Of a DNA stretch of 64,000 bases, positions 6,204 to 42,492 are shown in pieces. The notes under the pieces were generated by a model that ran no database searches, was not told the origin of the DNA, and saw only the letters and a program-made list of their open reading frames with translations. The stretch spans positions 133,288-197,287 of the forward strand of contig CAWDSG010000002.1 of assembly GCA_963804975.1 (NCBI GenBank), read 5' to 3'. Both the position numbers and the translations under genes were made by a program. This DNA is from an uncultured bacterium. Its GTDB lineage: Bacteria; Patescibacteriota; Minisyncoccia; Phycocordibacterales; GWA1-40-21. Numbering within the stretch: the first letter of the stretch is position 1; each line of letters opens with the position of its first letter.

Positions 6204-6240
6204 CCCCGAGGTTAAACCTCGGGGGAATTATCCACAGAAA
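6204..6240 (+). repeat. hairpin repeat copy 1 (left end of IS200-like element)
   Basis: cccccgaggttaaacctcgggggaattatccacagaaa. Confidence 0.8.
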
Positions 6241-8739: not shown

Positions 8740-8767
8740 TTGACATTCCTATTAATTTTGCTACTAT
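8740..8767 (+). promoter_or_regulatory. candidate promoter TTGACA-16-TACTAT upstream of rpsS
   Basis: ttgacattcctattaattttgctactat. Confidence 0.3.
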
Positions 8768-8804
8768 CTTAACTCAAGCTCTTCGGGGCTTTTAGAAAAA
8801 TAAG

Positions 8805-8926
8805 AAGAAAGCGACTATATTTTTCTTAACCCTGTGCAGTAAAAATCTTTAGATTTTATCACGCTAAATCGCGATGCTGCACAGGGTGAAGATTTTTATA
8901 GTCATTTTATTCCTTAAAAATCATTC
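8805..8926 (+). repeat. ERIC/MITE-like imperfect-palindrome intergenic element, copy A (variant), ends at the rpsS ATG
   Basis: 5' arm AGAAAGCGACTATATTTTTCTTAACCCTGTGCAG. 3' arm CTGCACAGGGTGAAGATTTTTATAGTCATTTTATTCCTTAAAAATCATTC. The ATG follows directly. Confidence 0.7.
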
Positions 8927-9268
8927 ATGGCACGATCGCTTAAAAAAGGACCGTATACGGACGAAAAACTTCTAAAAAAAATAGAAGACAAAAAACCGAT
9001 TGAAACCGGTGTTATTAAAACGTGGTCGCGAAGAAGCCAGATATCACCGGAAATGGTGGGTTTTATGTTTGGCGTCCACAACGGCAAGCAGCATATTGAG
9101 GTTCTTGTAACCGAAGATATGGTTGGTCACAGGCTTGGTGAATTTTCCCCCACGAGGAAGTTTACAAAACACGGCGGCAGGATGCAAAAGGATATTGAAA
9201 TGGCTGCGAAAGAATCCGAAACCAATGCGGCGAAAGCGGCAAAGGCCTCGGTAGAAGCCAAAAAGTAA
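8927..9268 (+). CDS. rpsS: 30S ribosomal protein S19 (with Lys/Ala-rich C-terminal extension)
   Basis: [12 protein letters not shown]...[52 protein letters not shown]. Confidence 0.93.
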
Positions 9269-9320
9269 TATGCGAAAATTACGCTAAATTGCGAATAGCG
9301 GCGAAAATTTAAATTCAAAT

Positions 9321-9713
9321 ATGGAAATAACAGCAAAATTAAATGATTATAGGCAATCGCCGAGAAAAGTGCGGCTGCTCGTTAATCTGATAAAAGGCAA
9401 GAAAGTGGAGGACGCGAAAAATTCACTTACTTTTTTGATAAAAAGGGCGGCAAAGCCGCTTTTGAATCTGCTTGATTCGGCTGTGGCGAATGCAAAAAAT
9501 AATTTTAATATAGAAAGCGATAAGCTTTTCGTAAAAAATTTCAGAGTTGATGAGGGTGTCGTATTGAAACGAAGAAGGCCGAGAGCTCGAGGTATGGCAT
9601 ATCCGATAAACAAAAGAACAAGCCATGTTTTCATTGAACTTGATACCACGGACAATATGCCGGCCAAGAAATCAAAAGTTAAACGTATAAAGCCGAAAGA
9701 AATCAAAAAATAA
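9321..9713 (+). CDS. rplV: 50S ribosomal protein L22
   Basis: MEITAKLNDYRQSPRKVRLLVNLIKGKKVEDA...; operon position. Confidence 0.9.
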   Translation: MEITAKLNDYRQSPRKVRLLVNLIKGKKVEDAKNSLTFLIKRAAKPLLNLLDSAVANAKNNFNIESDKLFVKNFRVDEGVVLKRRRPRARGMAYPINKRTSHVFIELDTTDNMPAKKSKVKRIKPKEIKK

Positions 9714-9717
9714 TTTT

Positions 9718-10389
9718 ATGTCGCACACGGTACATCCATATTCACACAGATTGGGAATCATCAGGGACTGGAAATCCCGCTGGTTTTCGTCCGGCCAAAA
9801 ATACAAGGATTTTTTAAGGGCCGATACGATGCTTCGGGAATATCTTGAAAAGAAAATGAGGGGCCAGTACATCGCTTCCATAGAAATGGAAAGAAACGAC
9901 AAGACATTCAGATTGATCGTGAAGACATCAAGGCCGGGCGTCATTATCGGCAGAAGCGGAGAGGGCTCGGTCAAATTAAGGAATGAAATAATGAAATTTG
10001 CGGCAAAGAACGAACTTTCAATTCCGAAAGATTTTAAATTGGATATTGAGGAAGTAAAATCTCCGGAATCAAACGCCGCTATCGTTTCTCAAATGATTGC
10101 CGAAGGGCTTGAAAAAAGATTGCCGTTTCGAAGGGTTATGAAGCAGACCGTTGAAAAGGTCATGGCAAACCGCGATGTGAAAGGCGTAAGGATTTATTGC
10201 GGAGGAAGATTGGGCGGCGCGGATATTGCCCGCTCGGAAGAATTGAAAAAAGGAAGGATTCCACTTCAAACCTTGAGAGCCGATATTGATTATGCGGAGG
10301 AAAAAGCCCATATGACATACGGCGACCTGGGAATAAAGGTTTGGATTTATAAAGGCGATATTTTCAATGAAAAACAACGAACAAAGTGA
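9718..10389 (+). CDS. rpsC: 30S ribosomal protein S3
   Basis: VHPYSHRLGIIRDWKSRWFS... KH domain; operon position. Confidence 0.93.
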   Translation: MSHTVHPYSHRLGIIRDWKSRWFSSGQKYKDFLRADTMLREYLEKKMRGQYIASIEMERNDKTFRLIVKTSRPGVIIGRSGEGSVKLRNEIMKFAAKNELSIPKDFKLDIEEVKSPESNAAIVSQMIAEGLEKRLPFRRVMKQTVEKVMANRDVKGVRIYCGGRLGGADIARSEELKKGRIPLQTLRADIDYAEEKAHMTYGDLGIKVWIYKGDIFNEKQRTK

Positions 10390-10540
10390 GTATGTTTTTC
10401 TTGACCCTGTGAAATAGGATCAAGAATAAATAGTTTGCTTTATAAAAATAAATGATATATATTCAAAACAATTAAATATTTACAGTATTATTTCACAGGG
10501 TGATGATTTTTATATTCACTCTGTTCATTAAAAATCAATC
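10376..10540 (+). repeat. ERIC/MITE-like element copy B; 5' arm overlaps the rpsC stop, 3' arm ends at the rplP ATG
   Basis: AACGAACAAAGTGAGTATGTTTTTCTTGACCCTGTGAAATA ... TATTTCACAGGGTGATGATTTTTATATTCACTCTGTTCATTAAAAATCAATC + ATG. Confidence 0.75.
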
Positions 10541-10957
10541 ATGTTAGTGCCAAAAAAAGTAAAATACAGAAAAGCGCACACTTTCAGGGAAAATCAAGGA
10601 AAAGTCGGCGTGGAATCAAGAGGGACAAGAGTTTCTTTCGGATCTTTCGGCTTGAAATCGCTTGATGCCGGAAGGATAAAATCAAACCAGATAGAATCGG
10701 CGAGAAAAGCCATCGCCCACTTGATGAGCAAAAGCGGAAAAATGTGGACAAGGATTTTTCCTGACCATCCCTACACTCAAAAACCTGCCGAAGTCAAAAT
10801 GGGCAAAGGAAAGGGTGAGCTTCAGGGATATGTCGCTATAGTCAAGCCAGGAAGAGTGCTTTTTGAAGTGGACGGAGTTCCGGAGGAGGCGGCCAGGGAA
10901 ATGCTCCGAAAAGGCGGCACGAAACTGCCCGTAAAAACAAAAATTATCGCCAGATAA
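10541..10957 (+). CDS. rplP: 50S ribosomal protein L16
   Basis: MLVPKKVKYRKAHTFRENQGK...IFPDHPYTQKPAEVKMGKGKGE. Confidence 0.93.
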   Translation: MLVPKKVKYRKAHTFRENQGKVGVESRGTRVSFGSFGLKSLDAGRIKSNQIESARKAIAHLMSKSGKMWTRIFPDHPYTQKPAEVKMGKGKGELQGYVAIVKPGRVLFEVDGVPEEAAREMLRKGGTKLPVKTKIIAR

Positions 10958-10972
10958 TCGATCAAAATCACC

Positions 10973-11164
10973 ATGAGTATAAAAGATTTAAGAAAAAAAA
11001 GTATCGGGGAGCTCGAAAATGAACTGAAGGACAAAATCCAATCCCTGAATAATTTTAAGCTCGGCATATCAAAAAGTTCGGTAAAGAATGTGAAGCACGG
11101 AAGGAATCTTAAAAAAGAAATCGCCCGGATACTGACTCTTTTGAAAGAATCTCAAAAAGCATAA
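10973..11164 (+). CDS. rpmC: 50S ribosomal protein L29
   Basis: MSIKDLRKKSIGELENELKDKIQSL; position between L16 and S17. Confidence 0.85.
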   Translation: MSIKDLRKKSIGELENELKDKIQSLNNFKLGISKSSVKNVKHGRNLKKEIARILTLLKESQKA

Positions 11165-11181
11165 ATTGCAGCGTATACAAT

Positions 11182-11445
11182 ATGGAAAAACAAACAATAC
11201 AAAAAAATAAAGGAAAAATCTTGAAAGGCCGCGTCGTTTCCTCAAAAATGAAAGATACGGTAGTTGTTTCCGTTGATTCGTTCAAAAAACATCCGAAATA
11301 CGGCAAATTTATCAAAAGGCAGAATAAAATCATGGCAGATGACCTCGGCAACAAGCATAAAGAAGGCGAAATAATCGAGATAATTGAGACAAAACCGATT
11401 TCAAAAAATAAAAGATTTAAAGTATTGGAACGGAATTCAAAATAA
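11182..11445 (+). CDS. rpsQ: 30S ribosomal protein S17
   Basis: KGRVVSSKMKDTVVVSVDSFKKHPKYGKFIKRQNKIMADD. Confidence 0.9.
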   Translation: MEKQTIQKNKGKILKGRVVSSKMKDTVVVSVDSFKKHPKYGKFIKRQNKIMADDLGNKHKEGEIIEIIETKPISKNKRFKVLERNSK

Positions 11446-11454
11446 TTAAAATTT

Positions 11455-11826
11455 ATGATACAAGACAAATCACTCGTGCATATTACGGATAATTCGGGCG
11501 CCAAAATAGGCCGGGTTTTTAAGATACTCGGAAGTTCGAAAAAGAGATGGGCAAAAATCGGCGAGATAGTCGTCCTGTCCGTCCAGAAAGCCGAACCGAG
11601 GAAACAGGTAAAGAAAAAAGATATTCTTTACGGCGTCGTTGTCAGACAGAGGCAGCCGCTGAGGAGAGATGACGGTTCGTACATCAGATTTGACGAGAAC
11701 GCGGTTGTAATCCTTGAAAAAGGCAAAAAAGAGCCGATCGCAGGAAGAATTTTTGGCCCTATTCCGAGGGAAATCGCGGATTTGGGCTTCAAGAAAATTG
11801 CTTCACTTGCGCCGGAAATTGTTTAA
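11455..11826 (+). CDS. rplN: 50S ribosomal protein L14
   Basis: MIQDKSLVHITDNSGAKIGRVFKILGSSKKRWAKIGEIVV. Confidence 0.93.
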   Translation: MIQDKSLVHITDNSGAKIGRVFKILGSSKKRWAKIGEIVVLSVQKAEPRKQVKKKDILYGVVVRQRQPLRRDDGSYIRFDENAVVILEKGKKEPIAGRIFGPIPREIADLGFKKIASLAPEIV

Positions 11827-11837
11827 ATAAAATCAAT

Positions 11838-12137
11838 ATGAAAATCAAGAAAGGAGACAATATAATAGTCATAGCCGGAAAAGACAAGGGTAAAGTCGGC
11901 AAGGTGCTTGCGGCTTATCCGAAAAACAACGCCATTCTTGTTGAAGGAATCAATATGCACAAGAAGCATGAGAAGGCCAGGAAATCCGGTTCAAAAGGCC
12001 AGACAATAGACAAAGCTATGCCGATAAATGTTTCAAACGTTATGATAAATAAAGACGGAAAAAGAGCCAGAGTTGGCAAAAAAATGATCGGCGGAAAATA
12101 TGTAAGAATCAACAAAAAAACCGGAGAAGAAATTTAG
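11838..12137 (+). CDS. rplX: 50S ribosomal protein L24
   Basis: MKIKKGDNIIVIAGKDKGKVGKVL (KOW motif). Confidence 0.9.
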   Translation: MKIKKGDNIIVIAGKDKGKVGKVLAAYPKNNAILVEGINMHKKHEKARKSGSKGQTIDKAMPINVSNVMINKDGKRARVGKKMIGGKYVRINKKTGEEI

Positions 12138-12143
12138 AAAAAT

Positions 12144-12310
12144 AACGAGCAAAGCGAGTATATTTTTCTTAACCCTGTGAAATAGGTTTATGAAAAAATT
12201 AGTTGCTTTATAAAAAAATAAATGATATATATTCAAAACAGTTAATTATTTACAGTATTATTTCACAGGGTGATGATTTTTATATTCACTCTGTTCATTA
12301 AAAATCAATC
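12144..12310 (+). repeat. ERIC/MITE-like element copy C (≈97% identical to copy B), ends at the rplE ATG
   Basis: AACGAGCAAAGCGAGTATATTTTTCTTAACCCTGTGAAATA ... TATTTCACAGGGTGATGATTTTTATATTCACTCTGTTCATTAAAAATCAATC + ATG. Confidence 0.75.
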
Positions 12311-12880
12311 ATGATATCGCTTAAAGAAAAACAGAATAAAGCATTTGATGCGCTTAAGGAAACGCTTGGCCTTAAAAATAAAATGCAGTCGCCGAAAATC
12401 ACAAAAGTGGTTTTGAATGTCGGCACCGGCTCGTTCAAAGACAAGAACAAGAATAAAATTGTTGATGACCGGCTTACGAAAATTTCCGGACAGAAAGCGG
12501 TTTTGAAAACAGCAAAGAAATCCATTGCGACTTTCAAAGTCAGGGAAGGAGATCCGGTGGGATATCAGGTGACGCTCCGAGGGCCGAGGATGTTTGATTT
12601 TTTGAACAAGCTTGTTTATGTAGCTCTGCCGAGAATGAAAGATTTCAGAGGGCTTTCGGCAAGCGCCATAGACAATATGGGCAATTTCACCATCGGTATA
12701 AAAGAAAATACGATTTTTCCGGAATCATCAGACGAAGAATTGAAAGATGTTTTTGGAATAGGAATAACAATTGTAACGAATGTGAAAAATAAAAAAACCG
12801 CCAAAACCTTCTTTGAATATCTCGGATTCCCATTCAGGAAAGTTGAAGAAGCCAGAATAAAAAAATCAAAAAAACACTAA
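12311..12880 (+). CDS. rplE: 50S ribosomal protein L5
   Basis: SPKITKVVLNVGTGS...GYQVTLRGPRMFDFLNKLVYVALPRMKDFRGLS. Confidence 0.93.
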   Translation: MISLKEKQNKAFDALKETLGLKNKMQSPKITKVVLNVGTGSFKDKNKNKIVDDRLTKISGQKAVLKTAKKSIATFKVREGDPVGYQVTLRGPRMFDFLNKLVYVALPRMKDFRGLSASAIDNMGNFTIGIKENTIFPESSDEELKDVFGIGITIVTNVKNKKTAKTFFEYLGFPFRKVEEARIKKSKKH

Positions 12881-13016
12881 ATTACTTAAAAATATCCGCG
12901 AAATGCGGGTATTTTTCTGTCCAAGTCGTATATTTAGAGATTAATCTTTCCGTTGACTTAAGCATAGTTTCTTGCTAATATTTCCAAACAAGCTTTTGGG
13001 AAGCTTTATTTAATTT

Positions 13017-13202
13017 ATGGCAAAAAAATCAGTAATAGCAAGATCAAAAAAGAAACCAAAATTCTCTTCAAGGATCGTGAGGAGATGTTTCCGCTGCGGA
13101 AGAAAGCACGGCTATATGAGGGATTTTGACCTGTGCAGAATCTGCTTCAGGGAGTTTGCCAACGAGGGAAAAATTCCGGGAATAAAAAAATCATCATGGT
13201 AA
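13017..13202 (+). CDS. rpsN: 30S ribosomal protein S14 (Zn-ribbon type Z)
   Basis: 61 aa; [24 protein letters not shown] (C4 zinc ribbon). Confidence 0.9.
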
Positions 13203-13585
13203 CCGATAAAATAGGAGATTTAATAATAAGAATCAAGAATGCAAACCTTGCAAAGAAGGAATCGGTCTCTTTATATTCTTCAAAAATCAAGGAAACTGTT
13301 GCCGAAGCGATTGCAAGAGCCGGTTTTGTAAAATCAGTTTCAAAAAGCAAAAATGGAAAAATGCTGGAAATCGCACTTTTATATAAAGCCGATAAAACTC
13401 CAAGAATACAAAATGTGGAAAGAGTATCAAAACCGTCAAGAAGAGTTTACAGAAGTGTTTTGGAAATCAAACCGTTCAAAAACGGTTTCGGCGCGATAAT
13501 ATTTTCCACGCCAAAAGGCATACTTTCAGACAAAGAAGCAAGGAAGCAAAAAGTCGGCGGAGAGGCTATGTTTAAGATTTGGTAA
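13196..13585 (+). CDS. rpsH: 30S ribosomal protein S8 (start at ATG 13196, overlapping the rpsN stop as ATGGTAA)
   Basis: [24 protein letters not shown]... The track ORF starts at 13133 in the same frame. The ATGG-TAA overlap with the rpsN stop suggests the shorter start. Confidence 0.85.
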
Positions 13586-13611
13586 CAATATAATTTTAAT
13601 AAAAGATTATC

Positions 13612-14145
13612 ATGTCAAGAATAGGCAAAAAACCAATAGATATTCCCGCGAAAACCGAAGTCAAAGTTGGCAATGGCATAGTTTCCGTCAAGGGCCCGCT
13701 TGGGGAACTCTCAAGAAATTTTAAGAAAGATATAATTGTCACGGTTTCGGGTAATAAGGTTGAATTGAAGCCGGCAAAGGAGAGCTTGGAAAATAACGCG
13801 CTCTGGGGAACTTACGCTTCGCATATAAAAAATATGATCGCCGGAGTAAACAAGGATTTCACCAAAAGATTGATTGTGGAAGGAATAGGATTCAAGGCGG
13901 ATGTCACACCAGCAGAGATAACTTTCAAGCTCGGTTTTTCGCACCCTGTAAAAGTCCAGATACCAAAAGGCCTAAAAGTGGTTTCCGATAAAGGTGTTCT
14001 TGTCATAAGCGGAACGGACAAAGAGCTTGTAAGCAGTTTCGCTTCAAGTTTGAAGGCCATAAAAAAACCGGAACCGTATAAAGGCAAAGGCATAAGATTT
14101 GAAAATGAAGTTATAAGAAGAAAGGAAGGAAAGAAAACAGCATAA
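13612..14145 (+). CDS. rplF: 50S ribosomal protein L6
   Basis: MSRIGKKPIDIPAKTEVKVGNGIVSVKGPLGEL. Confidence 0.93.
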   Translation: MSRIGKKPIDIPAKTEVKVGNGIVSVKGPLGELSRNFKKDIIVTVSGNKVELKPAKESLENNALWGTYASHIKNMIAGVNKDFTKRLIVEGIGFKADVTPAEITFKLGFSHPVKVQIPKGLKVVSDKGVLVISGTDKELVSSFASSLKAIKKPEPYKGKGIRFENEVIRRKEGKKTA

Positions 14146-14151
14146 AATAAA

Positions 14152-14502
14152 ATGAAAAGATTAACCGATAAAAAAACAAAAATACAGATAAGGCACAACA
14201 GGATCAGGGCAAAAATCTCAGGAACAAAAGAGATGCCGAGATTTTCCGTTTACAAATCAAACACTTCTGTTTATGGCCAGATCATTGACGATACAAAAGG
14301 CGTGACGCTTGCCGCATATTCCGCCGACAAAGCTTCGGGAAAAGGCATGCTTCAAAAATCAAGGAACGCCGGTATGGAAATTGCCAAGCTTGCGATCGGG
14401 AAAGGCGTAAAAAAAGTAGTTTTTGACAGAGGCGGTTTCATTTACACGGGCAAAATAAAAGCTTTTGCCGATGGCGCAAGGGAAGGCGGGCTTAAATTTT
14501 AA
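14152..14502 (+). CDS. rplR: 50S ribosomal protein L18
   Basis: RIRAKISGTKEMPRFSVYKSNTSVYGQIIDD... Confidence 0.9.
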   Translation: MKRLTDKKTKIQIRHNRIRAKISGTKEMPRFSVYKSNTSVYGQIIDDTKGVTLAAYSADKASGKGMLQKSRNAGMEIAKLAIGKGVKKVVFDRGGFIYTGKIKAFADGAREGGLKF

Positions 14503-14507
14503 TAATT

Positions 14508-15179
14508 ATGGATACGGAAATCAAAAAAACAGACAATGCAAATGCAACAGCTCCTGTAAATGCGGAAGCGAAAATTTCGGTGGCGAAAAAACCATTTCCG
14601 GAAAGAAAACCTTTCCCGAGGAAAGGGCCGGAAGGCGAGCGGGTCAAGAATCGCAGAAGAAGTTCCGGTGGCAGACCAGAGAGAGTAAAGCCGGAATTTG
14701 ACCAGAAAATTTTGAATATAAGAAGAGTGACCAGAGTCACCAAAGGCGGGAAAAGGATGAATTTCAGCGTCTGTGTCGCTGTTGGCAATAAAAAGGGCTC
14801 TGTCGGAGTAGGCACGGGCAAAGCAAATGACACTTCGGCCGCGATAGACAAGGCCTACAGAAACGCAAAGAAAAATGTTATACAGCTGAATCTGACCAAA
14901 CAGATGTCCATTCCTCACGATGTCAGCGCAAAGTATTGCAGCGGAAAGGTCTCAATAATACCGGCTCCGGGGAGGGGAGTTTCTGCGGGAAGCGCTTTGA
15001 AAAATGTTATCGAACTTGCCGGCATCAATGATGTGACAGGAAAAATAATTTCTCCGTCAAAGAATAAATTAAATATTTCAAAAGCGGCTATTTTGGCTTT
15101 ATCCGCTTTTGACAAGAAAAAAATTGCCGCACCGCAAAAAACAGAAGCAAAACTAGCTGAAGAAAAAACCGAAAAATAA
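14508..15179 (+). CDS. rpsE: 30S ribosomal protein S5 (N- and C-terminal extensions)
   Basis: RRVTRVTKGGKRMNFSVCVAVGNKKGSVGVGTGKANDTSAAIDKAYRNAKKN. Confidence 0.93.
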   Translation: MDTEIKKTDNANATAPVNAEAKISVAKKPFPERKPFPRKGPEGERVKNRRRSSGGRPERVKPEFDQKILNIRRVTRVTKGGKRMNFSVCVAVGNKKGSVGVGTGKANDTSAAIDKAYRNAKKNVIQLNLTKQMSIPHDVSAKYCSGKVSIIPAPGRGVSAGSALKNVIELAGINDVTGKIISPSKNKLNISKAAILALSAFDKKKIAAPQKTEAKLAEEKTEK

Positions 15180-15300
15180 CAAATATTACTTGTCCCGTTG
15201 TAAATTACGGACAAATGGTATAAATTAAAATAATAATCAATCATTGAATAAATAAGATAAATTAACAAAACATTAGTAGCTTTAAAATTTTACAACTGGG

Positions 15301-15732
15301 ATGAAAATACACGAGCTTAAAAGAATAACAAAAAATAAAAAGTTTACCGTTGTCGGCAGAGGCGGCAAAAGAGGAAAAACCTCCGGCAGGGGAGGAAAAG
15401 GCCAGACAGCGCGCGCCGGGCACAAAGCAAGACCTGAAATGAGGGATATTATCAAGAGAATGCCGAAACTCAGAGGATATTCTTTCAAAGGAAGAGCTAA
15501 AAAACCGATTATCATCAATATAAGCGATCTTGAGGCTGTTTTTGCAAATGATTCAAAAATCACACCAAAAATTCTTGTTGAAAAAGGCGTTGTGGAAATG
15601 AATGCCGGCAAAAATCCGGTAATAAAAATCCTGGCTTCAGGCGATCTTACAAAGAAACTTCTTGTTTCAAAGTGCGCCGTTTCAGGAGAAGCAAAAGAAA
15701 AAATAGAAAAAGCGGGCGGCAAGGTTTTATAA
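15301..15732 (+). CDS. rplO: 50S ribosomal protein L15 (no L30 gene between S5 and L15)
   Basis: GRGGKRGKTSGRGGKGQTARAGHKARPE... Confidence 0.9.
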   Translation: MKIHELKRITKNKKFTVVGRGGKRGKTSGRGGKGQTARAGHKARPEMRDIIKRMPKLRGYSFKGRAKKPIIINISDLEAVFANDSKITPKILVEKGVVEMNAGKNPVIKILASGDLTKKLLVSKCAVSGEAKEKIEKAGGKVL

Positions 15733-15742
15733 TTAAATTTAT

Positions 15743-17014: not shown

Positions 17015-17021
17015 AAACAAC

Positions 17022-17663
17022 TTGCAGTTTTTTATGTTTAATTTATTTAAAAAAGAAAATAAAAAATATGCCAACTTCGCGCCTATGGCATATGTTTTTA
17101 TCGGCAGATCCGGTTCCGGCAAAGGTACACAGGTGCAATTGCTCAAGGACGAATTTGAAAAAAGAAATGTCAGGGTTCTTCATATAGAAACAGGTTCTCT
17201 TTTGCGCGAATACGCAAAAGGCGGTTCCTATGTGCAAAAAATCGTGAAAAATATAATGCAGACGGGACATCTTGTACCCGACCCGGTTGTTATCGGTTTG
17301 TGGATGAACTATACCACCGGCAACTTTACCGGAAAAGAACAGATTATTTTTGACGGCGCTCCCAGGAAACTCGTGGAAGCGGTATTTCTTGACAGCACTA
17401 TGAGATTCCTGCAGATTCAAAAATATAAAATCATTTATATAGATGTCAGCCGGGAAAGCTGCATCAAACGGCTTACGGAAAGGAACAGAAACGACGATAC
17501 GGCGTCTGCTATAGAAAACAGAATGAATTGGTTTGATAATGATGTAATGCCGGCGGTTGAATTTTTCAGAAAAAACAAAGATTGCATTGTTTTGGATATC
17601 AACGGAGAGCAAAGCATTCCTGCCATTCACGATGAAATTATGAGAAAATTGCATCTTGTATAG
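17022..17663 (+). CDS. adk: adenylate kinase (true start possibly Met at ~17085, MAYVFIGRSGSGKGTQ)
   Basis: P-loop GRSGSGKGTQ; position after secY. Confidence 0.85.
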   Translation: MQFFMFNLFKKENKKYANFAPMAYVFIGRSGSGKGTQVQLLKDEFEKRNVRVLHIETGSLLREYAKGGSYVQKIVKNIMQTGHLVPDPVVIGLWMNYTTGNFTGKEQIIFDGAPRKLVEAVFLDSTMRFLQIQKYKIIYIDVSRESCIKRLTERNRNDDTASAIENRMNWFDNDVMPAVEFFRKNKDCIVLDINGEQSIPAIHDEIMRKLHLV

Positions 17664-18434
17664 ATGATTACCATAAAAACAAAAGAAGAAATAAAAATAT
17701 TGCGCGAAGGAGGAAGGCATCTGGCGGCTATCTTGGAAAAACTCGTGAAAGCGGTGAAGCCGGGAGTTTCCACCGATGATTTGGATAAGCTTGCCCGCAA
17801 GCTCGTGAAAGAAAACGGAGATATCCCCTCACTTTTAGGTTACAGGCCGAAAGGCGCAAAAAGGCCATATCCGGCCGCCGTTTGCATTTCACTCAATGAC
17901 GAGGTTGTCCACGGGATACCGAATGAATTTCCGAAAATTCTCAAAGACGGCGATATGATTTCTTTTGATATGTGCCTTACCCATAAAGGCCTTATAACCG
18001 ATTCCACCGTTACCGCGCCTGTGGGAAAAATTGATGCCGGAGCGCAAAAATTGATAAATGTCACAAAAAATGCTTTATATGCGGGCATTAAAGCGGCGAG
18101 AGGAAACAAGCATATCGGCGATATCGGTTTTGAGGTTGAGCGCACCGCCAAAGCAAACGGTTTTTCGGTTATTGAAGATCTTTGCGGGCACGGCGTAGGA
18201 TATGGCGTGCATGAAGATCCTCAAGTCCCGAACTTCGGCAGCAAAGGAAAAGGAGAAAAGTTAAAACCGGGAATGGTCATTGCGATAGAACCGATGCTTG
18301 CGGAAGGCGATAAAAATATATATCTGGACAAAGACGGCTATACATATAAAACAGTGGACGGTTCGCGAAGCGCGCATTTTGAACATACGGTTGCTATTAC
18401 GAACGGCGAGCCGGAGATATTGACAAAAATCTAG
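17664..18434 (+). CDS. map: type I methionine aminopeptidase
   Basis: MITIKTKEEIKILREGGRHLAAIL...; metal-binding D/H/E residues; position after adk. Confidence 0.9.
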   Translation: MITIKTKEEIKILREGGRHLAAILEKLVKAVKPGVSTDDLDKLARKLVKENGDIPSLLGYRPKGAKRPYPAAVCISLNDEVVHGIPNEFPKILKDGDMISFDMCLTHKGLITDSTVTAPVGKIDAGAQKLINVTKNALYAGIKAARGNKHIGDIGFEVERTAKANGFSVIEDLCGHGVGYGVHEDPQVPNFGSKGKGEKLKPGMVIAIEPMLAEGDKNIYLDKDGYTYKTVDGSRSAHFEHTVAITNGEPEILTKI

Positions 18435-18584
18435 AATAGTGTATACTATTAGTAGTTCTTTTAAATTAACTTGCAAAAATAGTCATAGCCAAAAGCCCTT
18501 AAATTATTGAGATTTTCTGGCTATGACTATATTTGATGTTCGGTCAAAGCTCCTACCTCGGATTAGAGGAATTTAAAATGCGCA

Positions 18585-19269
18585 ATGAAGCGCAGAAGGA
18601 GCAGTATCATGGAGAAGCCAGCATTTGTAACTGCCGATGTAACGCAGGGAACGCTGAACGCTCTGGTGAAAAACATCATGAGCCAGACGGGAGCAACTGA
18701 TCCGAACGAAGCGGTCAGGCTCGTCAACTCGGGGACATGGGCTCTCAAGCAGGTCACCAAGTGGTACGGAAAAAGACGGCGTGATTTACTTCACCCTCGT
18801 TTCAAACGGAATGACGGGCAAGGAGTGGATCAAGCACTTTGAGGCGAAGGGAATCAACGTTGGCGACTATGCCAAACAACTCCTTTTGTCCAAAGCTTTC
18901 AAGCCGAGCAAAAAGGGCACGATCTACAATATAGCGGTCATCAAAGGGGAGTTTTTCTCCGATGACAACCGCATCACGTCAAACATTCGGGAAGAGGCAG
19001 ACAAACGCAAGTTTGGAAAGCCGAATGCCGAAGTTTCGCCCCTCACCCGAGACATGTTCACGAACGAGGAGATCAAGGCGATGGGTCTTTACTGGATCGT
19101 GCCGATGCACGAACCCATCAAGGATTCTGACGGCGATCCTAGCTTGCTCGGTGCGGGCCGTCGCGATGGCAGGCCGTGGCTCGGTGCGTATGACGGCAGG
19201 TCTGACAGCAGGTGGGGTCGTGAGGACGGGTTCGCTTTTTTGGCTCCGCAAGTTAGTTCTCAAAACTAA
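18585..19269 (+). CDS. DGR target (variable) protein; reading frame broken at an A5 run (18770-18774); C-terminal variable repeat
   Basis: ORFs 18585..18842 and 18781..19269 fuse (…VTKWYGK|DGVIYFTLVSNG…) if one A is removed from GGAAAAAGAC. GC content is higher than in flanking DNA. VR at 19126-19249. Confidence 0.7.
19126..19249 (+). other. DGR variable repeat (VR), 124 bp, at the 3' end of the target gene
   Basis: Identical to the TR except at 16 positions, all with A in the TR. The 3' end TTCGCTTTTTTGGCTCCGC is conserved (IMH-like). Confidence 0.9.
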
Positions 19270-19306
19270 GTAACTTAGGACTGCTGTCCTTTGAAACTTA
19301 GTCCTT

Positions 19307-19339
19307 GGGCCCCGCGCATTTTGGCGGGGCCCTTTTTTT
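19307..19339 (+). terminator. GC-rich hairpin + U-tract downstream of the VR (terminator / DGR homing hairpin)
   Basis: gggccccgcgcattttggcggggccc + ttttttt, 57 bp after the VR end. A smaller hairpin aggac-tgct-gtcct lies at 19278-19291. Confidence 0.75.
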
Positions 19340-19577
19340 ATGCTAAAATAAAAATGGTAGTAGGCGAATATGTGGGTGATCAAGGTTTCTCACTGCCGAA
19401 TCCAGTATCCATAAGTTGAGAGCGTTTGCGATTACGATTTCAAACGGAGGACTTATGTAGACTCTTCACAAAAAATGAAGATACTTGGTACAGAATATTA
19501 AGGTATTTAAAATACCACATCAGATACAACTCTGAGAGCATTCAAGGAGTGGTGACATAGGCGGTATTCTGTACATT

Positions 19578-19701
19578 TCTGACGGCGATCCTAACTTGCT
19601 CGGTACGAACCGTAACGATGACAGGCCGTGGCTCAATGCGTATAACGACAGGTCTGACAACAGGTGGAATCGTGAGAACGGGTTCGCTTTTTTGGCTCCG
19701 C
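19578..19701 (+). other. DGR template repeat (TR), 124 bp
   Basis: Same orientation as the VR. More A-rich, with AAC codons where the VR has AGC/GGC/CGC/GAC etc. Confidence 0.9.
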
Positions 19702-19709
19702 TAATCTTT

Positions 19710-20075
19710 TCATTTCTCTCCTGCTTTTGCGGGAGAGTTTTGTTTTAATATTTGTCCGTTCCAACCGCCGAGCATTTTTCCGATTTCGTCCAGGTGAAGG
19801 GATAAAGCAATATATTTTTTGTTATCAAGCGATTTTGTTTCCCAGAGAACCATCAGTAATATCTTGAGAGTATCAAGTTTCCTGATAGCAATAGAAATAT
19901 AAGGACGTTTTTCTTCTTTCGGCAAAAAACTTGCGATTGAGATTGATTCAATAATTTCCACAAAAAGAGTATCAACCCTGTTTCCAAGAGAATATCGATG
20001 CGGTTTAGGCAGGATTTGATAGTATTCATACCAAAGAATGTAAGCGGTTTTCACTTTCTGCAAAAGAGGCAACAA
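19710..20075 (-). CDS. avd: DGR accessory variability determinant (Avd), four-helix-bundle protein
   Basis: 121 aa. ...IALSLHLDEIGKMLGGWNGQ resembles the Avd C-terminal motif (…EVGRILGSW…). Sits between the TR and the RT but on the opposite strand. Confidence 0.65.
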   Translation of the reverse strand: MLPLLQKVKTAYILWYEYYQILPKPHRYSLGNRVDTLFVEIIESISIASFLPKEEKRPYISIAIRKLDTLKILLMVLWETKSLDNKKYIALSLHLDEIGKMLGGWNGQILKQNSPAKAGEK

Positions 20076-20108
20076 TTTTGCGGGGGGGGGGCATTATAGT
20101 CATATATT

Positions 20109-21125
20109 TTGTGTTGTAATATGTCTAAAATTAAATTTACTGACAGTTATGAGAATATCATTGAAATGGAAAATCTCCTAGAAGCGTGGAGAGAATTTGT
20201 TGTTGGCAAAAAATCCCGCAAGGATGTGGAAGAATTTCAAAGGTATTTAATGCAAAATATTATTTCCCTAAACAGGGAATTAGAAACCAAAACCTACAAA
20301 CATTCTCTGTACGAAGCGTTTAATATATCCGATCCGAAGCCAAGAAATATACACAAAGCAAAGGTAAGGGACAGATTATTGCACCACGCTTTATACAGAA
20401 AACTCTATCCATTTTTTGACAAAACTTTTACTTCCGACTCGTATTCTTGCAGATTGGGAAAGGGAACCCACAAAGCCATTGAAAGATTTCAGTCATTTGC
20501 GAACAAAGTATCAAAAAATAATACAAAAACGGTCTGGATTTTAAAATGCGATATACGAAAATTCTTTGCTTCCATAGACCAAGAAATTTTATTGAAAATA
20601 CTGAATGAATATATACCTGACAAAGATATTATCGCTGTTCTATCAGAAATCATTCACAGTTTTTGTTCCATTGAAAAAGGAAAAGGATTGCCTCTTGGAA
20701 ATCTGACATCACAGCTTCTAGTGAATATTTATATGAATAAGTTTGACCAGTTTGCAAAACACAAGCTAAAAGCAAAATATTATATAAGATACGCCGATGA
20801 CTTCGTTTTGTTATCGGAGGACAAAACGTGGCTTGAAAGTGCAATACAAAAAATCAGTGATTTTTTGTGGAACAAACTAACACTAAAATTACATCCAAAA
20901 AAACTGTTTCTGCAAACACTGGCTTCAGGCGTTGATTTTCTCGGCTGGGTTCACTTTCCAAATCATCGCGTTATACGAACTGTTACAAAAAGAAGAATGT
21001 TTAAAAATATCAAGCTGAAAAATGGAAAGATAGAAACAGTTCAATCTTATCTTGGTTTGCTATCTCATGGGAATGCTAAAAAATTGGCTGTAGAAATAGA
21101 TAATATTGTTAAAACTAATTTATGA
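20109..21125 (+). CDS. DGR reverse transcriptase (likely start at Met 20121, MSKIKF)
   Basis: RT motifs: PRNIHKAKVRDRLLHHAL (1/2), SYSCRLGKGTHKA, GLPLGNLTSQLLVNIYMNKFDQF (LGxxxSQ, DGR-RT hallmark), RYADDFVLL (YxDD), GVDFLGW. Confidence 0.85.
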   Translation: MCCNMSKIKFTDSYENIIEMENLLEAWREFVVGKKSRKDVEEFQRYLMQNIISLNRELETKTYKHSLYEAFNISDPKPRNIHKAKVRDRLLHHALYRKLYPFFDKTFTSDSYSCRLGKGTHKAIERFQSFANKVSKNNTKTVWILKCDIRKFFASIDQEILLKILNEYIPDKDIIAVLSEIIHSFCSIEKGKGLPLGNLTSQLLVNIYMNKFDQFAKHKLKAKYYIRYADDFVLLSEDKTWLESAIQKISDFLWNKLTLKLHPKKLFLQTLASGVDFLGWVHFPNHRVIRTVTKRRMFKNIKLKNGKIETVQSYLGLLSHGNAKKLAVEIDNIVKTNL

Positions 21126-21139
21126 TATAATTTACCAAT

Positions 21140-23926
21140 ATGGCAGAGCAATTTGTACCTGAAAAAATAGAGCAGAAATTCAAGACCCCGGAGGAGGAAC
21201 TGCGGTTTTTGCGCGCAGAAGTTTTAAAGCACGAAAAAACAATTGCGGAGCGCAATGAGACGCCGCTTCGCGAGGAGATTATACGGAGCCAGCTTAAAGT
21301 TCATGCGCAGAGGAAAAAAGAGGATGTTTTGGAAAAAAATTATGCTCTGAAAAATAAAGAGGCGGAAGCCATTGTTTTGGATTTGTCGCCGGAGGAGCAC
21401 GATTATAAGATGGCCGAGCTCATTACGATTTTGCAGGAAAAAGGGGTTCTCAATACGCTTTCTGTCGTTGAAAAATTGAAAGATCCGCATTTGGAGGACG
21501 ATTTTCACAGATTCCTGATTCAATACATAAAATCCGGTTTTTCTGTCGGAAGAAATAACGAAAAAAGTCCAGTTTTGAAAGCGCTCAAAATGACGCTCTT
21601 TGAAGTTTCTCTTCCCGGAATCGCAAAAGATGATGCGCAAAAAGGAAAGCATCTGAAAGAATTGATATCAAAAATGGAGCAATTTTACGCAGGCATGCTT
21701 TCCGTGGAATCAAACGATAAAGATGGCGCGGGATATTTTTCACTTGAACTTACAAGCGCAAATCACTCAAGTGAAATAATTTTTTACATATCGGTTCCCG
21801 ACGGTAAAAAATCTTTGTTTGAAAAGCAGGCGCAATCTATTTTTCAGGATATAAAAATCACGGAGAAAAAAGACGATTATAATATTTTCAATGAGGAAGG
21901 GGATTATGTCGGATCATACGGAGAGTTTAACGAAAATCATATTTTTCCGCTGAAGACATACGAGCAATATGATTATGATCCGCTCAATGTCATCCTAAAC
22001 AGCTTTTCAAAGATTGATAAAGACGGCGAAGGTGCGGCAATACAGATAATCGTCAAGCCGGCGGAAAGCGAAAAAATGAGTTTTTACAAACGAGTGCTCA
22101 CAGAAATGGAAAAAGGCGCCAAGTTCAAAGATGCGCTTGAAAAGGCGGATTCTTCTTTTCTCGGCATTTTCAAGCAAGTCGGCAAGGATCTTATCGGCGC
22201 AAATGAAAAAAAAGACAAAAATGAAAAACCAGAAAATGCAGGCATTTCCAACCAAGTGCCCATTGAAAACATAAAAATAAAAACCGCAAGCCCGCTTGTA
22301 GATATTAACGTGCGCATTATGGCTTCAGGCGTCACCAGGGAAGAAGCCGGAGCAATACTTTCCGATATAGAATCAGCTTTCAATCAGTTTGAAAATACGA
22401 ATGGCAACAAATTTGTTTTTGACCGCATAGAGGGCAGGAATCTCCTGAAAATGGCGCGCGATTTTTCATTCAGGATTTTTGATGAAGAAAATGCCTTGGC
22501 GGTCAATTTGAAAGAGCTGACGACAGTGATGCATTTGCCCGAAGTTGATTTCGGCGAAGCATCGCAATTGAAACAGACAGCCGCAAATACCGCGCCGGCT
22601 CCGCTTGATTTGCCGATAAAAGGAATCCTTTTGGGAACAAATAAATTCAGGAGTAACGAGACCCCGATTCATATTACGGCAGAAGACCGCTTGAGGCATT
22701 TTTATATCATTGGACAGACCGGTACAGGCAAAACGACGCTTTTGAAAACCATGATCCGCCAGGATATCTTAAACGGCGAAGGCGTCTGCATGATTGATCC
22801 GCACGGTTCCGATATCCAGGAAGTGCTTTCTTTCGTTCCGCCTGAGAGATATCAGGATGTGATTTACTTTGACCCGAGCTACACGGCAAGGCCTTTCGGC
22901 TTAAATATGCTTGAATACGATGCAAGATTTCCGGAGCAAAAGACATTCGTGGTGAATGAAATGGTTTCTATTTTCAATAAGCTTTTTGATATGAAAACAA
23001 CCGGAGGCCCGATGTTTGAGCAGTATTTCAGGAATGCTACCAATCTTGTCCTGGATGATCCGGAATCAGGATGCACACTTCTTGATATTTCAAGAGTAAT
23101 GGCGGATAAAAATTTCAGGGATCTGAAGCTTTCAAAATGCAAGAATCCTCTCGTCGTCCAGTTTTGGAAAGATATCGCTCTTAAGGCCGGCGGAGAAGCA
23201 TCGCTTGCTAATATGGTCCCTTACATCACTTCAAAATTCGACGTATTCCTTTCAAATGAAATAATGCGCCCGATAGTATCCCAGGAAAAATCATCTTTTG
23301 ATTTCCGTGATATCATGGACAACAAGAAAATTCTTCTGGTGAATCTTGCAAAAGGGCGCCTTGGAGATATCAACTCAAACCTTATCGGCCTTATCATTGT
23401 GGGCAAGCTTTTGATGGCCGCTCTTTCAAGAACCGATTCGTTCGGAGAAAATTTTCCGCCATTTTATCTCTACATTGATGAATTCCAGAATATTACGACG
23501 GATTCCATTTCAACAATCCTTTCCGAAGCCAGAAAATACAAACTTGCGCTTACCATAGCCCATCAATTCATCGCCCAGCTTGAAGATAAAATCAAAAATG
23601 CGGTTTTTGGAAACGTCGGTTCAATGGCGGTATTCCGCGTAAGTTCCGAGGATGCCGAATATCTGGCAAAGCAATTTACGCCGGTATTCACTGCAAAAGA
23701 CCTGATGAATATTGATATCCATAGTTCGTATGTGAAATTGCTTGCAAACGGCAGGCCGGCAAAACCGTTTTCCATGGAAACAAATCTGCCTCCGCGAGGC
23801 GACAAGCTTCTGCTTGATAAAATCAAAGAATTGTCGTATCTTACTTACGGCAAGGATAGGAATGAGGTTGAAGAAGAAATCGCCAAAAAATTCAGGAAAT
23901 CTGAGCCAGTGATGCCAAAAATTTAG
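21140..23926 (+). CDS. TraD/TraG/VirD4-like (T4SS coupling-protein-type, FtsK-HerA superfamily) P-loop ATPase with ~500-aa N-terminal extension
   Basis: Walker A GQTGTGKTT, IDPHG, Walker B YLYIDEFQ, RKYKLALTIAHQ...QL, VFGNVGSMAVFRV (TraG-D_C-like). Paralogous to 45910..47793. Confidence 0.6.
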   Translation: MAEQFVPEKIEQKFKTPEEELRFLRAEVLKHEKTIAERNETPLREEIIRSQLKVHAQRKKEDVLEKNYALKNKEAEAIVLDLSPEEHDYKMAELITILQEKGVLNTLSVVEKLKDPHLEDDFHRFLIQYIKSGFSVGRNNEKSPVLKALKMTLFEVSLPGIAKDDAQKGKHLKELISKMEQFYAGMLSVESNDKDGAGYFSLELTSANHSSEIIFYISVPDGKKSLFEKQAQSIFQDIKITEKKDDYNIFNEEGDYVGSYGEFNENHIFPLKTYEQYDYDPLNVILNSFSKIDKDGEGAAIQIIVKPAESEKMSFYKRVLTEMEKGAKFKDALEKADSSFLGIFKQVGKDLIGANEKKDKNEKPENAGISNQVPIENIKIKTASPLVDINVRIMASGVTREEAGAILSDIESAFNQFENTNGNKFVFDRIEGRNLLKMARDFSFRIFDEENALAVNLKELTTVMHLPEVDFGEASQLKQTAANTAPAPLDLPIKGILLGTNKFRSNETPIHITAEDRLRHFYIIGQTGTGKTTLLKTMIRQDILNGEGVCMIDPHGSDIQEVLSFVPPERYQDVIYFDPSYTARPFGLNMLEYDARFPEQKTFVVNEMVSIFNKLFDMKTTGGPMFEQYFRNATNLVLDDPESGCTLLDISRVMADKNFRDLKLSKCKNPLVVQFWKDIALKAGGEASLANMVPYITSKFDVFLSNEIMRPIVSQEKSSFDFRDIMDNKKILLVNLAKGRLGDINSNLIGLIIVGKLLMAALSRTDSFGENFPPFYLYIDEFQNITTDSISTILSEARKYKLALTIAHQFIAQLEDKIKNAVFGNVGSMAVFRVSSEDAEYLAKQFTPVFTAKDLMNIDIHSSYVKLLANGRPAKPFSMETNLPPRGDKLLLDKIKELSYLTYGKDRNEVEEEIAKKFRKSEPVMPKI

Positions 23927-23932
23927 TAAATT

Positions 23933-24036
23933 AACGAGCAAAGCGAGTATAATTTTCTTAACCCCGTGAAATAAGAATTCAAAATTTCACAGGGTGATGA
24001 TTTTAAAAATTCGCTCTGCTCACAATAAAATCAATC
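23933..24036 (+). repeat. ERIC/MITE-like element copy D (short form), ends at the ndk ATG
   Basis: AACGAGCAAAGCGAGTATAATTTTCTTAACCCCGTGAAATAAGAATTCAAAATTTCACAGGGTGATGATTTTAAAAATTCGCTCTGCTCACAATAAAATCAATC + ATG. Confidence 0.7.
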
Positions 24037-25670: not shown

Positions 25671-25707
<37 letters not shown>

Positions 25708-27362: not shown

Positions 27363-27413
<51 letters not shown>

Positions 27414-29687: not shown

Positions 29688-29800
29688 GTTCTGGTGCTTC
29701 GTCGCGGAGGTCACACCTGATCTCATTCCGAACTCAGAAGTTAAGCTCCGTTGAGGCGATGATACTCTCTATGAAGGGGAAAGTAGCTAAGCGCCGGAAC
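29688..29800 (+). rRNA. rrf: 5S rRNA
   Basis: GTTCTGGTGCTTCG...CACCTGATCTCATTCCGAACTCAGAAGTTAAGC...GGGAAAGTAGCTAAGCGCCGGAAC. Helix I pairs 5' GUUCUGGUGCUU with 3' AAGCGCCGGAAC. Confidence 0.85.

Positions 29801-40959: not shown

Positions 40960-42492
<1,533 letters not shown>

Follow-up and report, generated by a model that had tools for sequence, protein, structure and literature searches.

Hairpin-ended repeats ahead of start codons in Patescibacteria: a probable family of mobile elements with a small GIY-YIG nuclease as occasional cargo

MITEs (miniature transposable elements with inverted repeats), exemplified by the Correia elements of Neisseria and the ERIC elements of enterobacteria, are short, non-coding, imperfectly palindromic and multi-copy stretches of transcribed intergenic DNA, often located upstream of genes. 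Internal insertions give rise to size variants, and their presence or absence differs among relatives. These features are shared by the repeat described here, four copies of which (A–D) are found in a 64-kb stretch of contig CAWDSG010000002.1 from an uncultured member of the Patescibacteria (hereafter, the window), each followed directly by the ATG of rpsS, rplP, rplE or ndk. Unlike MITEs, however, this element shows no target-site duplication and replaces the native spacer, its orientation is fixed, it borders on a stop codon at one end and a start codon at the other, and its partner bearing an open reading frame (ORF) encodes a GIY-YIG nuclease and no recognised transposase; the words GIY and endonuclease are absent from a 2024 review of prokaryotic MITEs (PMC10969869). 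Copies A–D are probably ORF-less derivatives of a hairpin-ended mobile element spread across the Patescibacteria, the autonomous form of which would encode a minimal GIY-YIG nuclease, and which would colonise the spacers preceding start codons by replacing them. The traits by which a MITE is recognised are present as regards size (<~500 bp), lack of a gene, terminal inverted repeats and multi-copy polymorphism, and absent as regards target-site duplication; in the place of the parent transposon, full-length copies with the same ends encode the GIY-YIG nuclease, whose role in mobility is putative.

Several other systems resemble the element in part. Free-standing GIY-YIG homing genes, such as the seg genes of phage T4 ('intronless homing'), also lie between host genes and are present or absent at orthologous sites, and they are expected to spread by break repair with co-conversion of the flanks. 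Homing by free-standing genes is the subject of PMC2790892. Unlike them, the element holds a catalytic domain of 75–95 residues alone, without a DNA-binding domain, and exhibits hairpin-forming inverted ends, abundant ORF-less derivatives and many target sites per genome. The nuclease ORF that a homing gene must contain is missing from A–D and is found in ~7% of the family among the matches listed, in nuclease-bearing full-length copies; the replacement of spacers with microhomology would nevertheless be compatible with cleavage of a vacant allele followed by copying. The IS200/IS605 and REP/RAYT systems share with the element hairpin-defined ends, the lack of target duplication and many ORF-less palindromic derivatives, but they rely on a Y1 HUH enzyme and on end hairpins located on one strand, whereas the element has inverted arms and GIY-YIG cargo; neither a repeat-associated Y1 enzyme nor same-strand end hairpins are found in it. 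The UPF0213/COG2827 'URI-domain' proteins (E. coli YhbQ, B. subtilis YazA and BH0048, PDB 1zg2) are relatives both of the element nuclease and of Slx1, and are regarded as housekeeping genes of unknown function; no mobile, inverted-repeat-bounded context for them was found in the literature searched. In the rRNA genes of the candidate phyla radiation (CPR), all GIY-YIG proteins lie in insertions unlike group I or group II introns, and many short ORF-less insertions occur as well (Tsurumaki et al. 2024; PMC11270868). Likened by description only, these may be hairpin elements of the same sort placed in a different host context, although CPR rRNA insertions and the 23S rRNA intervening sequences excised by RNase III lie inside rRNA genes, unlike the element.

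Core-motif and hidden Markov model (HMM) searches recovered the four copies, all on the + strand, at the places where the first-pass annotation had put them. In the window, the 5' core TTTTCTTAACCCTGTG (<=3 mismatches) gives 4 matches vs. 0.89 expected and the 3' core CACAGGGTGATGATTTT (<=3 mismatches) 4 vs. 0.20 expected, every one on the + strand, and 0 of 100 shuffled windows contained 4 matches, for either core; profile searches with 5'-arm and 3'-half HMMs revealed no fifth copy in the 64 kb. The copies are 113–176 bp long, hold no ORF, and adjoin genes assigned by Pfam to S19, S3|L16, L24|L5 and TraG/VirD4-like ATPase|Ndk (Table 1). The family has a left arm, TTTAG-AAAAATAA-CGAGCGAAGCGAC-TATATTTTTC, and a right arm, TGATGATTTTTATA-GTCGCTTCGCTC-ATTAAAAATCAATC, which abuts the host ATG; its members always end in ...UUAAAAAUCAAUC-AUG. 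The 5'-arm hairpin is here called P0, the central stem P2, the 3'-arm hairpin P5 and the arm-to-arm helix P1. Conservation begins 7–12 nt further to the left than first drawn and takes in the upstream stop codon (TAG in A, C and D), as in the left end of C and D, which reads AAATTTAG-AAAAATAA-CGAGC; in copy B, the stop codon of rpsC had correctly been placed within the 5' arm. B and C, described earlier as ~97% identical, share 91.0% identity overall, distributed as 40/40 in the 3' arm, 89.6% in the interior and 85.4% in the 5' arm.

The insertion of imperfectly palindromic, MITE-like repeats into a ribosomal-protein operon had been proposed in the first-pass annotation, and their membership of a mobile family is borne out by close relatives of the host in which 4/4 sites are empty. 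Three contigs with L16 homologues 88–91% identical (L170, L172 and L173) show the gene order of the window, namely a giant PG-binding protein, in L170 also the Y1 transposase, a PKD/LTD protein and S19-L22-S3-L16 onwards. In all three, the S3|L16 spacer measures 5–9 nt and the L24|L5 spacer 9–11 nt, both without the element, which is likewise missing from the rpsS 5' untranslated region (UTR); a profile search of these three loci detected no copy. At site D, one relative (L178) reads ATPase-TAA-CC-ATG-ndk, with a spacer of 2 nt, while L177, which belongs to the contig of L170, has a 24-nt spacer before ndk and no element. A leader conserved at the same sites in relatives, the finding that would have spoken against a mobile repeat, is therefore not what is seen, the sites being empty and copies being located elsewhere. 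The suggested coincidence of the copies with break points of the operon is not supported either: in relatives without the element, neither the junction between the PKD/LTD protein and rpsS nor the promoter of rpsS differs from that of the window, and the lack of rplB ahead of rpsS is unrelated to the element. L177 also holds, at 3501–4897, two tandem ndk-family genes and extra ORFs (236 and 91 residues) between the ATPase gene and ndk, so that gene content at the D locus varies among relatives independently of the element.

The comparison of filled and empty sites shows that nothing of the native spacer was kept: the element took its place all the way from the region of the stop codon up to the ATG. 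At junction C, the native gaaattTAA-TATAACACC-ATG has become gaaattTAG-AAAAATAACGAGC...CAATC-ATG, and at junction B ttcaat-aaagataagaaaTAA-tttaaagcc-ATG has become ttcaat-gaaaaacAACGAAC...CAATC-ATG, whereby rpsC lost its last 4 codons together with the spacer and a TGA in the arm serves as its stop. At junction A, the promoter and the 5' hairpin, both kept in relatives without the element, were retained, and the 26 nt from the hairpin to the ATG were replaced. Altogether, 2–26 nt of native sequence were replaced with no target-site duplication between filled and empty sites, and what the junctions have in common is limited to TTA(G/A) at the left-hand end and ATG at the right-hand end. The AAAAAT runs were considered as a target-site duplication, but this reading is contradicted by the filled and empty sites, and both runs are stem strands of the arm hairpins.

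Outside the window, more than 100 further copies precede other genes. The element is not private to the source genome, and occurs before unrelated housekeeping genes in metagenome-assembled genomes (MAGs) of many Patescibacteria. A first scan, using a 21-nt 3' motif over one genome per species and leaving the tail unconstrained, yielded 23 loci, comprising 17 true copies, from MAGs named Zambryskibacteria, Wolfebacteria, Nomurabacteria, Saccharibacteria, Paceibacterota and Minisyncoccia, and 6 chance matches in coding sequence; although free, the tail reads (C/T)TC-N-TTAAAAATC-WWTC-ATG nearly everywhere. A second scan, with a second anchor over metagenomes, placed no constraint on P2, P1, the 5' half or the spacing from the ATG, and yielded at least 120 loci. 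Among the matches listed, to which the counts below also refer, 110 are true elements, defined by GG[GA] ahead of the motif plus the tail. In 104/110 of these, an ATG follows 3–7 nt after AAAATC (exactly at +4 in 92), and in 102/104 an ORF follows that is either >=50 residues long or truncated where the contig stops. Downstream, 94 Pfam families are represented, among which S12 (six times), NusA (five), DnaK and L11 (four each), S18 and PilC (three each), and RecA, GroEL, L16, L5, SerRS and Fpg (twice each) are recurrent. On the upstream side, 36 of the 56 distinct elements contain, within their first 25 nt, the end of a same-strand ORF; in 21 of these cases its stop is the TAG/TAA of TT[TAG]AAAAAT. 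Other upstream ORFs run to a TAA or TGA deeper in the arm, like rpsC in copy B. Several copies can share a genome or locus, as in the window (4 in 64 kb), in the 7-kb locus L122 (3) and in one Saccharibacteria MAG (4 matches). The family spans many CPR lineages of class or phylum rank.

In host and orientation the family is unlike ERIC, to which the copies had been likened: ERIC elements are found in Enterobacteriaceae/Vibrionaceae and are inserted in either orientation, whereas here the host is a member of a different phylum and the orientation is fixed in 104/110 copies. The ERIC2 primer had 0 matches at <=3 mismatches, a weak test of the ERIC consensus. A viral contig scan with a 17-mer returned 26 matches, all of them chance matches in coding sequence. 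In a gathering scan with Rfam 15, rRNAs and tRNAs alone passed and no family corresponded to the element; at E up to 10, C/D-box snoRNA and miRNA matches alone appeared, all below gathering scores. The element was not found described in the literature searched.

Covariation across the family supports three separate hairpins, corresponding to the left arm, the centre and the right arm. Among the elements of the second scan, the sequence of P2 is freely variable (AACAGGG, CACGGGG, GAGGGGG, TGCTGGG and others), while its strands remain paired, with 9.43 of 12 positions pairing with the own partner vs. 7.51 +/- 0.17 (maximum 8.02) with swapped partners and 93% of pairs being Watson-Crick. P0, located in an arm that the search anchors left unconstrained, follows the model (UA)G-AAAAAUA-A-N-GA-GC-GAA-GC-GA-N'-U-A-UAUUUUU-C and is 92.6% paired vs. 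79.4 +/- 1.1 when shuffled (0/500), falling to 40–57% when slid; both sides change in 8/12 pairs, as in 12:24, which is found as G-C, C-G, U-A and A-U. The 5' arms of B and C show five differences, of which four make up a pair of compensatory double changes in P0, one changing AAAAAT/ATATTTTT into AAAAAC/ATGTTTTT and the other GCAAAGC into ACAAAGT, which also creates the TGA stop of rpsC. P5, modelled as UGAU-GAUUUUUA-U-A-N-UC-GC-UUC-GC-UC-N'-U-UAAAAAUC-A-AUCA(UG), is 95.9% paired vs. 89.7 +/- 0.4 shuffled (0/500), its lower stem being fixed by the pattern of the second scan. Its unconstrained pairs covary as well, at 15:27 (G-C 21, C-G 15, U-A 12), 18:24 (G-C 37, A-U 27), 19:23 (C-G 35, U-A 23) and 4:38 (U-A 59, A-U 7, with TGAAGA accompanying CATTC-ATG), and the complementarity of the lower stem persists in the first scan, where the tail was free; D, L037 and L048 carry length variants that match each other across the stem. 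RNAalifold of 20 short forms also folds the 3' arm on itself. The stop codon lies within P0, and the A of the start codon within P5.

The long arm-to-arm hairpin of the first-pass annotation is indeed the predicted minimum free energy structure (P1-P2, -31 to -43 kcal/mol), and A–D fold better than shuffled sequences (z = -5.3 to -7.6, equal on both strands). However, the P1 arms, ~70% Watson-Crick complementary across 57 elements, do not covary (13.53 with the own partner vs. 13.46 +/- 0.19 swapped), and P1 was dropped as a selected structure. The proposal of an intrinsic terminator or attenuator is not supported either, as a terminator scan called no such site in A–D, where the U-run lies 6 nt from the P2 stem, compared with the 0–2 nt that separate U-run and GC-rich stem in such a terminator, and pairs with the AAAAAUC tail. 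A K-turn or C/D-box reading of UGAUGA was discarded by inspection, the partner strand lacking the required G.A geometry and UGAUGA representing tandem stops plus a P5 strand; the resemblance of CGCUCAUUAAAAAUC to boxA/nut-like sequences was set aside because this segment is a strand of a covarying hairpin.

In its full length, the element extends to ~400 bp and holds, in the loop of the central hairpin, a stand-alone GIY-YIG ORF of 75–95 residues. Seven distinct copies carry an intact ORF (L149, L087, L054, L161, L133, L071 and L108, the last identical to L129), the frame ending at TGATGA being open for 87–102 codons, and its product matches the GIY-YIG catalytic domain PF01541 with E = 1e-16 to 6e-6. 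These copies have the same ends and arms as A–D. The copy in L087, located between nusG and rplK, reads TTTAG-AAAAATAACGAGCAAGGCGAGTGTATTTTTCTTAA-CCCCGTGAAATA-(18 nt)-ATG...TCTTATTTCACGGGG-TGATGA-TTTTTATAGTCGTTTCACTCCTTAAAAATCAATC-ATG, and such copies, where the same ends flank the ORF, place the nuclease gene in the P2 loop. The last codons of the ORF (..YFTG, ..YLTG, ..RAG) are the 3' strand of P2, followed by UGAUGA as tandem stop. In L133, a full-length copy precedes rpsS, the same kind of site as that of copy A. Interior lengths among the matches listed cluster at ~30, 50–58, ~100, ~130 and 240–290 nt, and decayed ORFs are found in L117/L166, both as expected of deletion derivatives.

The nuclease is a stand-alone domain of the UPF0213/COG2827 'URI' type. 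Its closest solved structure is BH0048 (1zg2; E = 0.002), and in NCBIfam it has a match below threshold only, to group I intron endonucleases. Homologues are named 'GIY-YIG nuclease family protein', 'putative endonuclease' or 'URI domain' protein in the source records, and are also mislabelled 'excinuclease ABC subunit C' or 'hypothetical' in MAG annotation. YhbQ and YazA have been grouped with the structure-selective nuclease Slx1 (PMC7017083). Homologues ~64% identical exist outside the CPR. A Saccharicrinis genome has an ORF bracketed by a P2-type inverted repeat without outer arms, and in the Deltaproteobacteria MAG WHTF01000030.1 (L175, 1328–1995) a CCTGTGAAATA-[ORF]-TATTTCACAGG unit splits a gene of the 23S_rRNA_IVP family, now called as fragments of 56 and 60 residues, an apparent insertion of the nuclease and P2 core into coding sequence outside the CPR. 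As these homologues keep the P2 repeat alone, the nuclease with P2 looks like the mobile core, to which the CPR form adds the outer arms.

Other arrangements of interiors and copies were also observed. The ~100-nt interiors of L061, L074, L092 and L122 share a nested hairpin module (for example, GCAACACGC-TTC-GCGAATAG-AGGGATGGG-CTATTCGC-CCCC-GCGTGTTGC), and interiors cluster tightly near 100 nt despite their differing sequence. In L033 (~330–500), a short hairpin of the D type (loop AAGAATCCAAA) sits in the 5' arm of another copy; L046 (1643–1880, - strand) has a second P2-like stem within P2, with a promoter-like AT-rich segment; and in L043 (~4414–4560, - strand) a GIY-YIG ORF ending ...YLMG-TAG lies immediately upstream of a complete short element. 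The cargo of B and C is laid out as TTGCTT-N15/17-TATATA followed by TTTACAG, and that of L047 (~6790–6850) as TTGCAT-N17-TATAAA followed by TTTACAG. These AT-rich segments possibly form a promoter-bearing class of cargo; the letters of the TTGCTT...TATATA box noted earlier are present, but a consensus promoter scan calls neither this box nor the similar L047 cargo, and inside B and C it finds weak 9/12 matches alone.

Under the preferred reading, the full-length element would be built of a left arm, a P2 stem enclosing the GIY-YIG ORF and a right arm, each arm acting as a hairpin-forming terminal inverted repeat. Its point of entry would be the short stretch, spacer or 5' UTR, immediately preceding a start codon, which it would replace without target duplication. 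The left end carries stop codons in several frames (TAG, TAA, TGA), and the right end an A/U-rich region that resembles an idealised site of initiation and keeps a constant distance of 5 nt from the ATG; by virtue of these two ends the element would be tolerated in essential operons. The nuclease, a relative of the structure-selective nucleases of the Slx1/YhbQ type, would move the element by acting in trans on its hairpin ends or on vacant sites, and spread would proceed by break-induced copying guided by microhomology, with the uniform orientation resulting partly or wholly from selection. As judged by sequence, the right end resembles an idealised native leader of this host. The host 16S rRNA (3' end within 42440–42499) ends in ...GGAAUUUUUCAAAU, without CCUCC, and reads ...GCUCGUGGAAUUUUUCAAAU where E. 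coli has GGAUCACCUCCUUA, that is, with no anti-Shine-Dalgarno sequence. GGAG, GAGG or AGGA occurs in the 20 nt upstream of 0/54 predicted genes of the window, whose leaders are A/U-rich, with AAAAT in 25/54. A Shine-Dalgarno-like pairing of GGGUGAU with 16S rRNA was rejected, the host 16S rRNA lacking the anti-Shine-Dalgarno tail.

The arms repeat a single hairpin-forming site in inverted orientation without covarying with each other, and their mismatches differ in type. G.T vs. A.C mismatches stand at 11:8 in P0 and 6:19 in P5; on the inward-reading strands this amounts to 30:14, an asymmetry based on 44 cells only (about p = 0.02 by our own arithmetic). P2 contains 5 G.U vs. 23 A.C, and the excess of G.U that would be the signature of a sense RNA is absent from both P2 and the arms. 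Two-fold inverted symmetry together with the types of mismatch points to selection on DNA rather than on the sense RNA, and the symmetry, left unexplained by an RNA function, would fit a DNA element whose two ends are both recognised by a protein. The core of the arm, GCGAAGC, corresponds to the classic mini-hairpin of DNA, which is hyper-stable. In the mRNA, on the other hand, the P1-P2 form is predicted to be 4–12 kcal/mol more stable than P0, the middle hairpin and P5, so that the transcript may adopt either fold; as modelled, the two folds differ in the freedom of the initiation region, which may leave room for a secondary RNA effect such as coupling or RNase III processing.

An RNA effect of this kind is the substance of the reading in which the repeat is mainly a cis-acting translational operator or coupling device and the nuclease ORF an occasional invader. 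P5 would hide the downstream initiation region together with the A of the AUG, until a ribosome ending at the P0 stop melted P0, whereupon P1 would form and P5 open, linking initiation on the downstream gene to translation of the upstream one. The nearly invariant orientation and AUG distance agree with this, as do the enrichment of targets for S12, NusA, DnaK, L11, S18, RecA, GroEL, L16 and L5, the covariation of P5 up to the start codon, the stop codon held in P0, and the mutual exclusion of P1 and P0 plus P5, with P1 the more stable by the energies above; A-rich leaders would moreover matter in a host devoid of anti-Shine-Dalgarno and Shine-Dalgarno sequences. However, orthologous genes in close relatives work without the element at all four sites, P1, which the switch needs, shows no covariation, and RNA does not require two-fold inverted arms, whose mismatches favour opposite strands. 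The near absence of G.U from P2, the lack of an Rfam match, the nested or tandem copies and the retention of the ORF end in ORF-less copies likewise disagree with it, and as the main explanation it seems unlikely.

The remaining alternatives concern the machinery. A useful cassette of stop codon, structured spacer and start region could be copied by ordinary recombination and horizontal transfer with no dedicated enzyme, being kept for expression or mRNA stability, as might result from a stem that protects the transcript or from processing by RNase III. Junctions with microhomology only and no target-site duplication, the identical 3' arms of B and C, and the recurrence of sites preceding conserved genes are all in keeping with such a cassette, and Correia MITEs can carry promoters and are cut by RNase III at their inverted repeats (PMC10969869). 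Nevertheless, it leaves unexplained the recurrent nuclease ORF built into P2, the covarying hairpin-forming inverted ends, and the nuclease and P2 unit found outside the CPR, including in a disrupted gene, and we give it little credence. Mobilisation by the Y1 (HUH) transposase encoded at 6281–7027 was likewise considered, the copies then being REP/BIME-like or derived from IS200/IS605; hairpin-defined ends without target duplication are typical of HUH Y1 systems, and the Pfam Y1_Tnp ORF lies 2 kb upstream. This is very improbable, since the hairpin repeat on either side of the Y1 gene, CCCCGAGGTTAAACCTCGGGG, is unrelated, L170 possesses this gene and none of the elements, full-length elements carry GIY-YIG and never Y1 among the matches listed, and the arms are inverted instead of forming same-strand hairpins.

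Several observations weigh against a nuclease-driven mobile element. The 64-kb window encodes no such nuclease (tblastn best E = 1.3), and any autonomous partner of A–D in the same genome is putative. The nuclease is a catalytic domain without a DNA-binding domain, and we know of no activity or target for its subgroup. Strict sense orientation, fixed AUG distance and highly expressed targets would also fit a function at the RNA level, and an RNA role may be retained in that P5 pairs with the start codon. As single-stranded DNA, the arm hairpins of A–D are marginal (-4.4 to -5.4 kcal/mol, z = -1.2 to -3.0), and the mismatch asymmetry comes from the few cells mentioned above. Finally, the 3' block served as the anchor of both collection scans, so that conservation there arises partly by construction and divergent relatives go unseen. 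A broader proposal, which we put forward tentatively and hold to be somewhat doubtful, is that of a previously unrecognised class of transposable elements whose sole protein is a GIY-YIG nuclease of ~85 residues (not DDE, HUH, serine or tyrosine) acting on hairpin or cruciform ends, and which spreads by replacing gene-start spacers with a built-in stop/start adaptor and possibly a P0/P5-to-P1 RNA switch; the many unexplained small UPF0213/COG2827 genes of bacteria could then in part be such elements.

If the preferred reading of a GIY-YIG-encoding mobile element holds, the cell's most conserved operon harbours a selfish-looking element, which recurs at many sites in many lineages despite the very small genomes of Patescibacteria. 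It would exemplify how a mobile element that brings along stop codons and an initiation region can do no harm in a polycistronic operon, it would offer mobility of the element as a candidate function for the numerous tiny proteins of the GIY-YIG family, and it may account for the non-intron GIY-YIG-bearing insertions in CPR rRNA genes. As regards annotation, such elements lengthen or shorten upstream ORFs (rpsC here) and mimic "conserved leaders"; for CPR genetic tools, the right arm could serve as a natural portable initiation region where Shine-Dalgarno pairing is absent.

Table 1. Coordinates of the four copies, their parts and the native rpsS leader in the window.
Feature	Position	Strand	Remarks
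Copy A (short form)	8793..8929	+	TAG 8793-8795 (stop of no ORF) to rpsS ATG 8927-8929; two small internal hairpins
Copy A, parts	P0 8795-8825; P2 stem 8830-8839 with 8877-8886; P5 8887-8927	+	
Copy B, between rpsC and rplP	10367..10543	+	rplP ATG 10541-10543
Copy B, parts	P0 10369-10400; P2 10405-10416 with 10489-10500; P5 10501-10541	+	rpsC stop TGA 10387-10389 within P0 / 5' arm
Copy B, AT-rich cargo	10417-10488	+	
Copy C, between rplX and rplE	12135..12313	+	rplX stop TAG 12135-12137 inside the copy; rplE ATG 12311-12313
Copy C, parts	P0 12137-12168; P2 12173-12184 with 12259-12270; P5 12271-12311	+	
Copy C, AT-rich cargo	12185-12258	+	
Copy D, between TraG/VirD4-like ATPase gene and ndk	23924..24039	+	Shortest form; ATPase stop TAG 23924-23926 inside the copy; ndk ATG 24037-24039
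Copy D, parts	P0 23926-23957; P2 23962-23972 with 23984-23994; P5 23995-24037	+	P2 closed by an 11-nt loop
Native rpsS promoter-like site	8740-8767	+	TTGACA-16-TACTAT with TG; 10/12 match; kept in relatives without the element
Native rpsS 5'-UTR hairpin AAGCTCTTCGGGGCTT	8776-8791	+	Host sequence, kept in relatives without the element; copy A starts directly 3'

The IS200-like Y1 transposase ORF (Pfam Y1_Tnp) has a set of repeats of its own. A 30-nt hairpin repeat, CCGAGGTT(A/T)AACCTCGGGGGAATTATCCAC, occurs at 6204–6235, 6478–6507 and 6985–7016, that is, upstream of the ORF, inside it and at its 3' end, in a REP/RAYT-like arrangement. The Y1 gene (222 residues) is present in L170 and not in L172 or L173.

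The rRNA genes of the window are unlinked and all on the + strand (23S, 25127–28105; 5S, 29690–29799; 16S, 40953–42493), the 16S gene lying ~11 kb beyond the 5S gene with protein-coding ORFs between them and two tRNAs following at 43136–43304. Two pairs of direct repeats unrelated to the element were also noticed, one of 125 nt with 88% identity (19125–19249 / 19577–19701, 452 nt apart) and one of 36 nt with exact identity (38281–38316 / 39215–39250, 934 nt apart).

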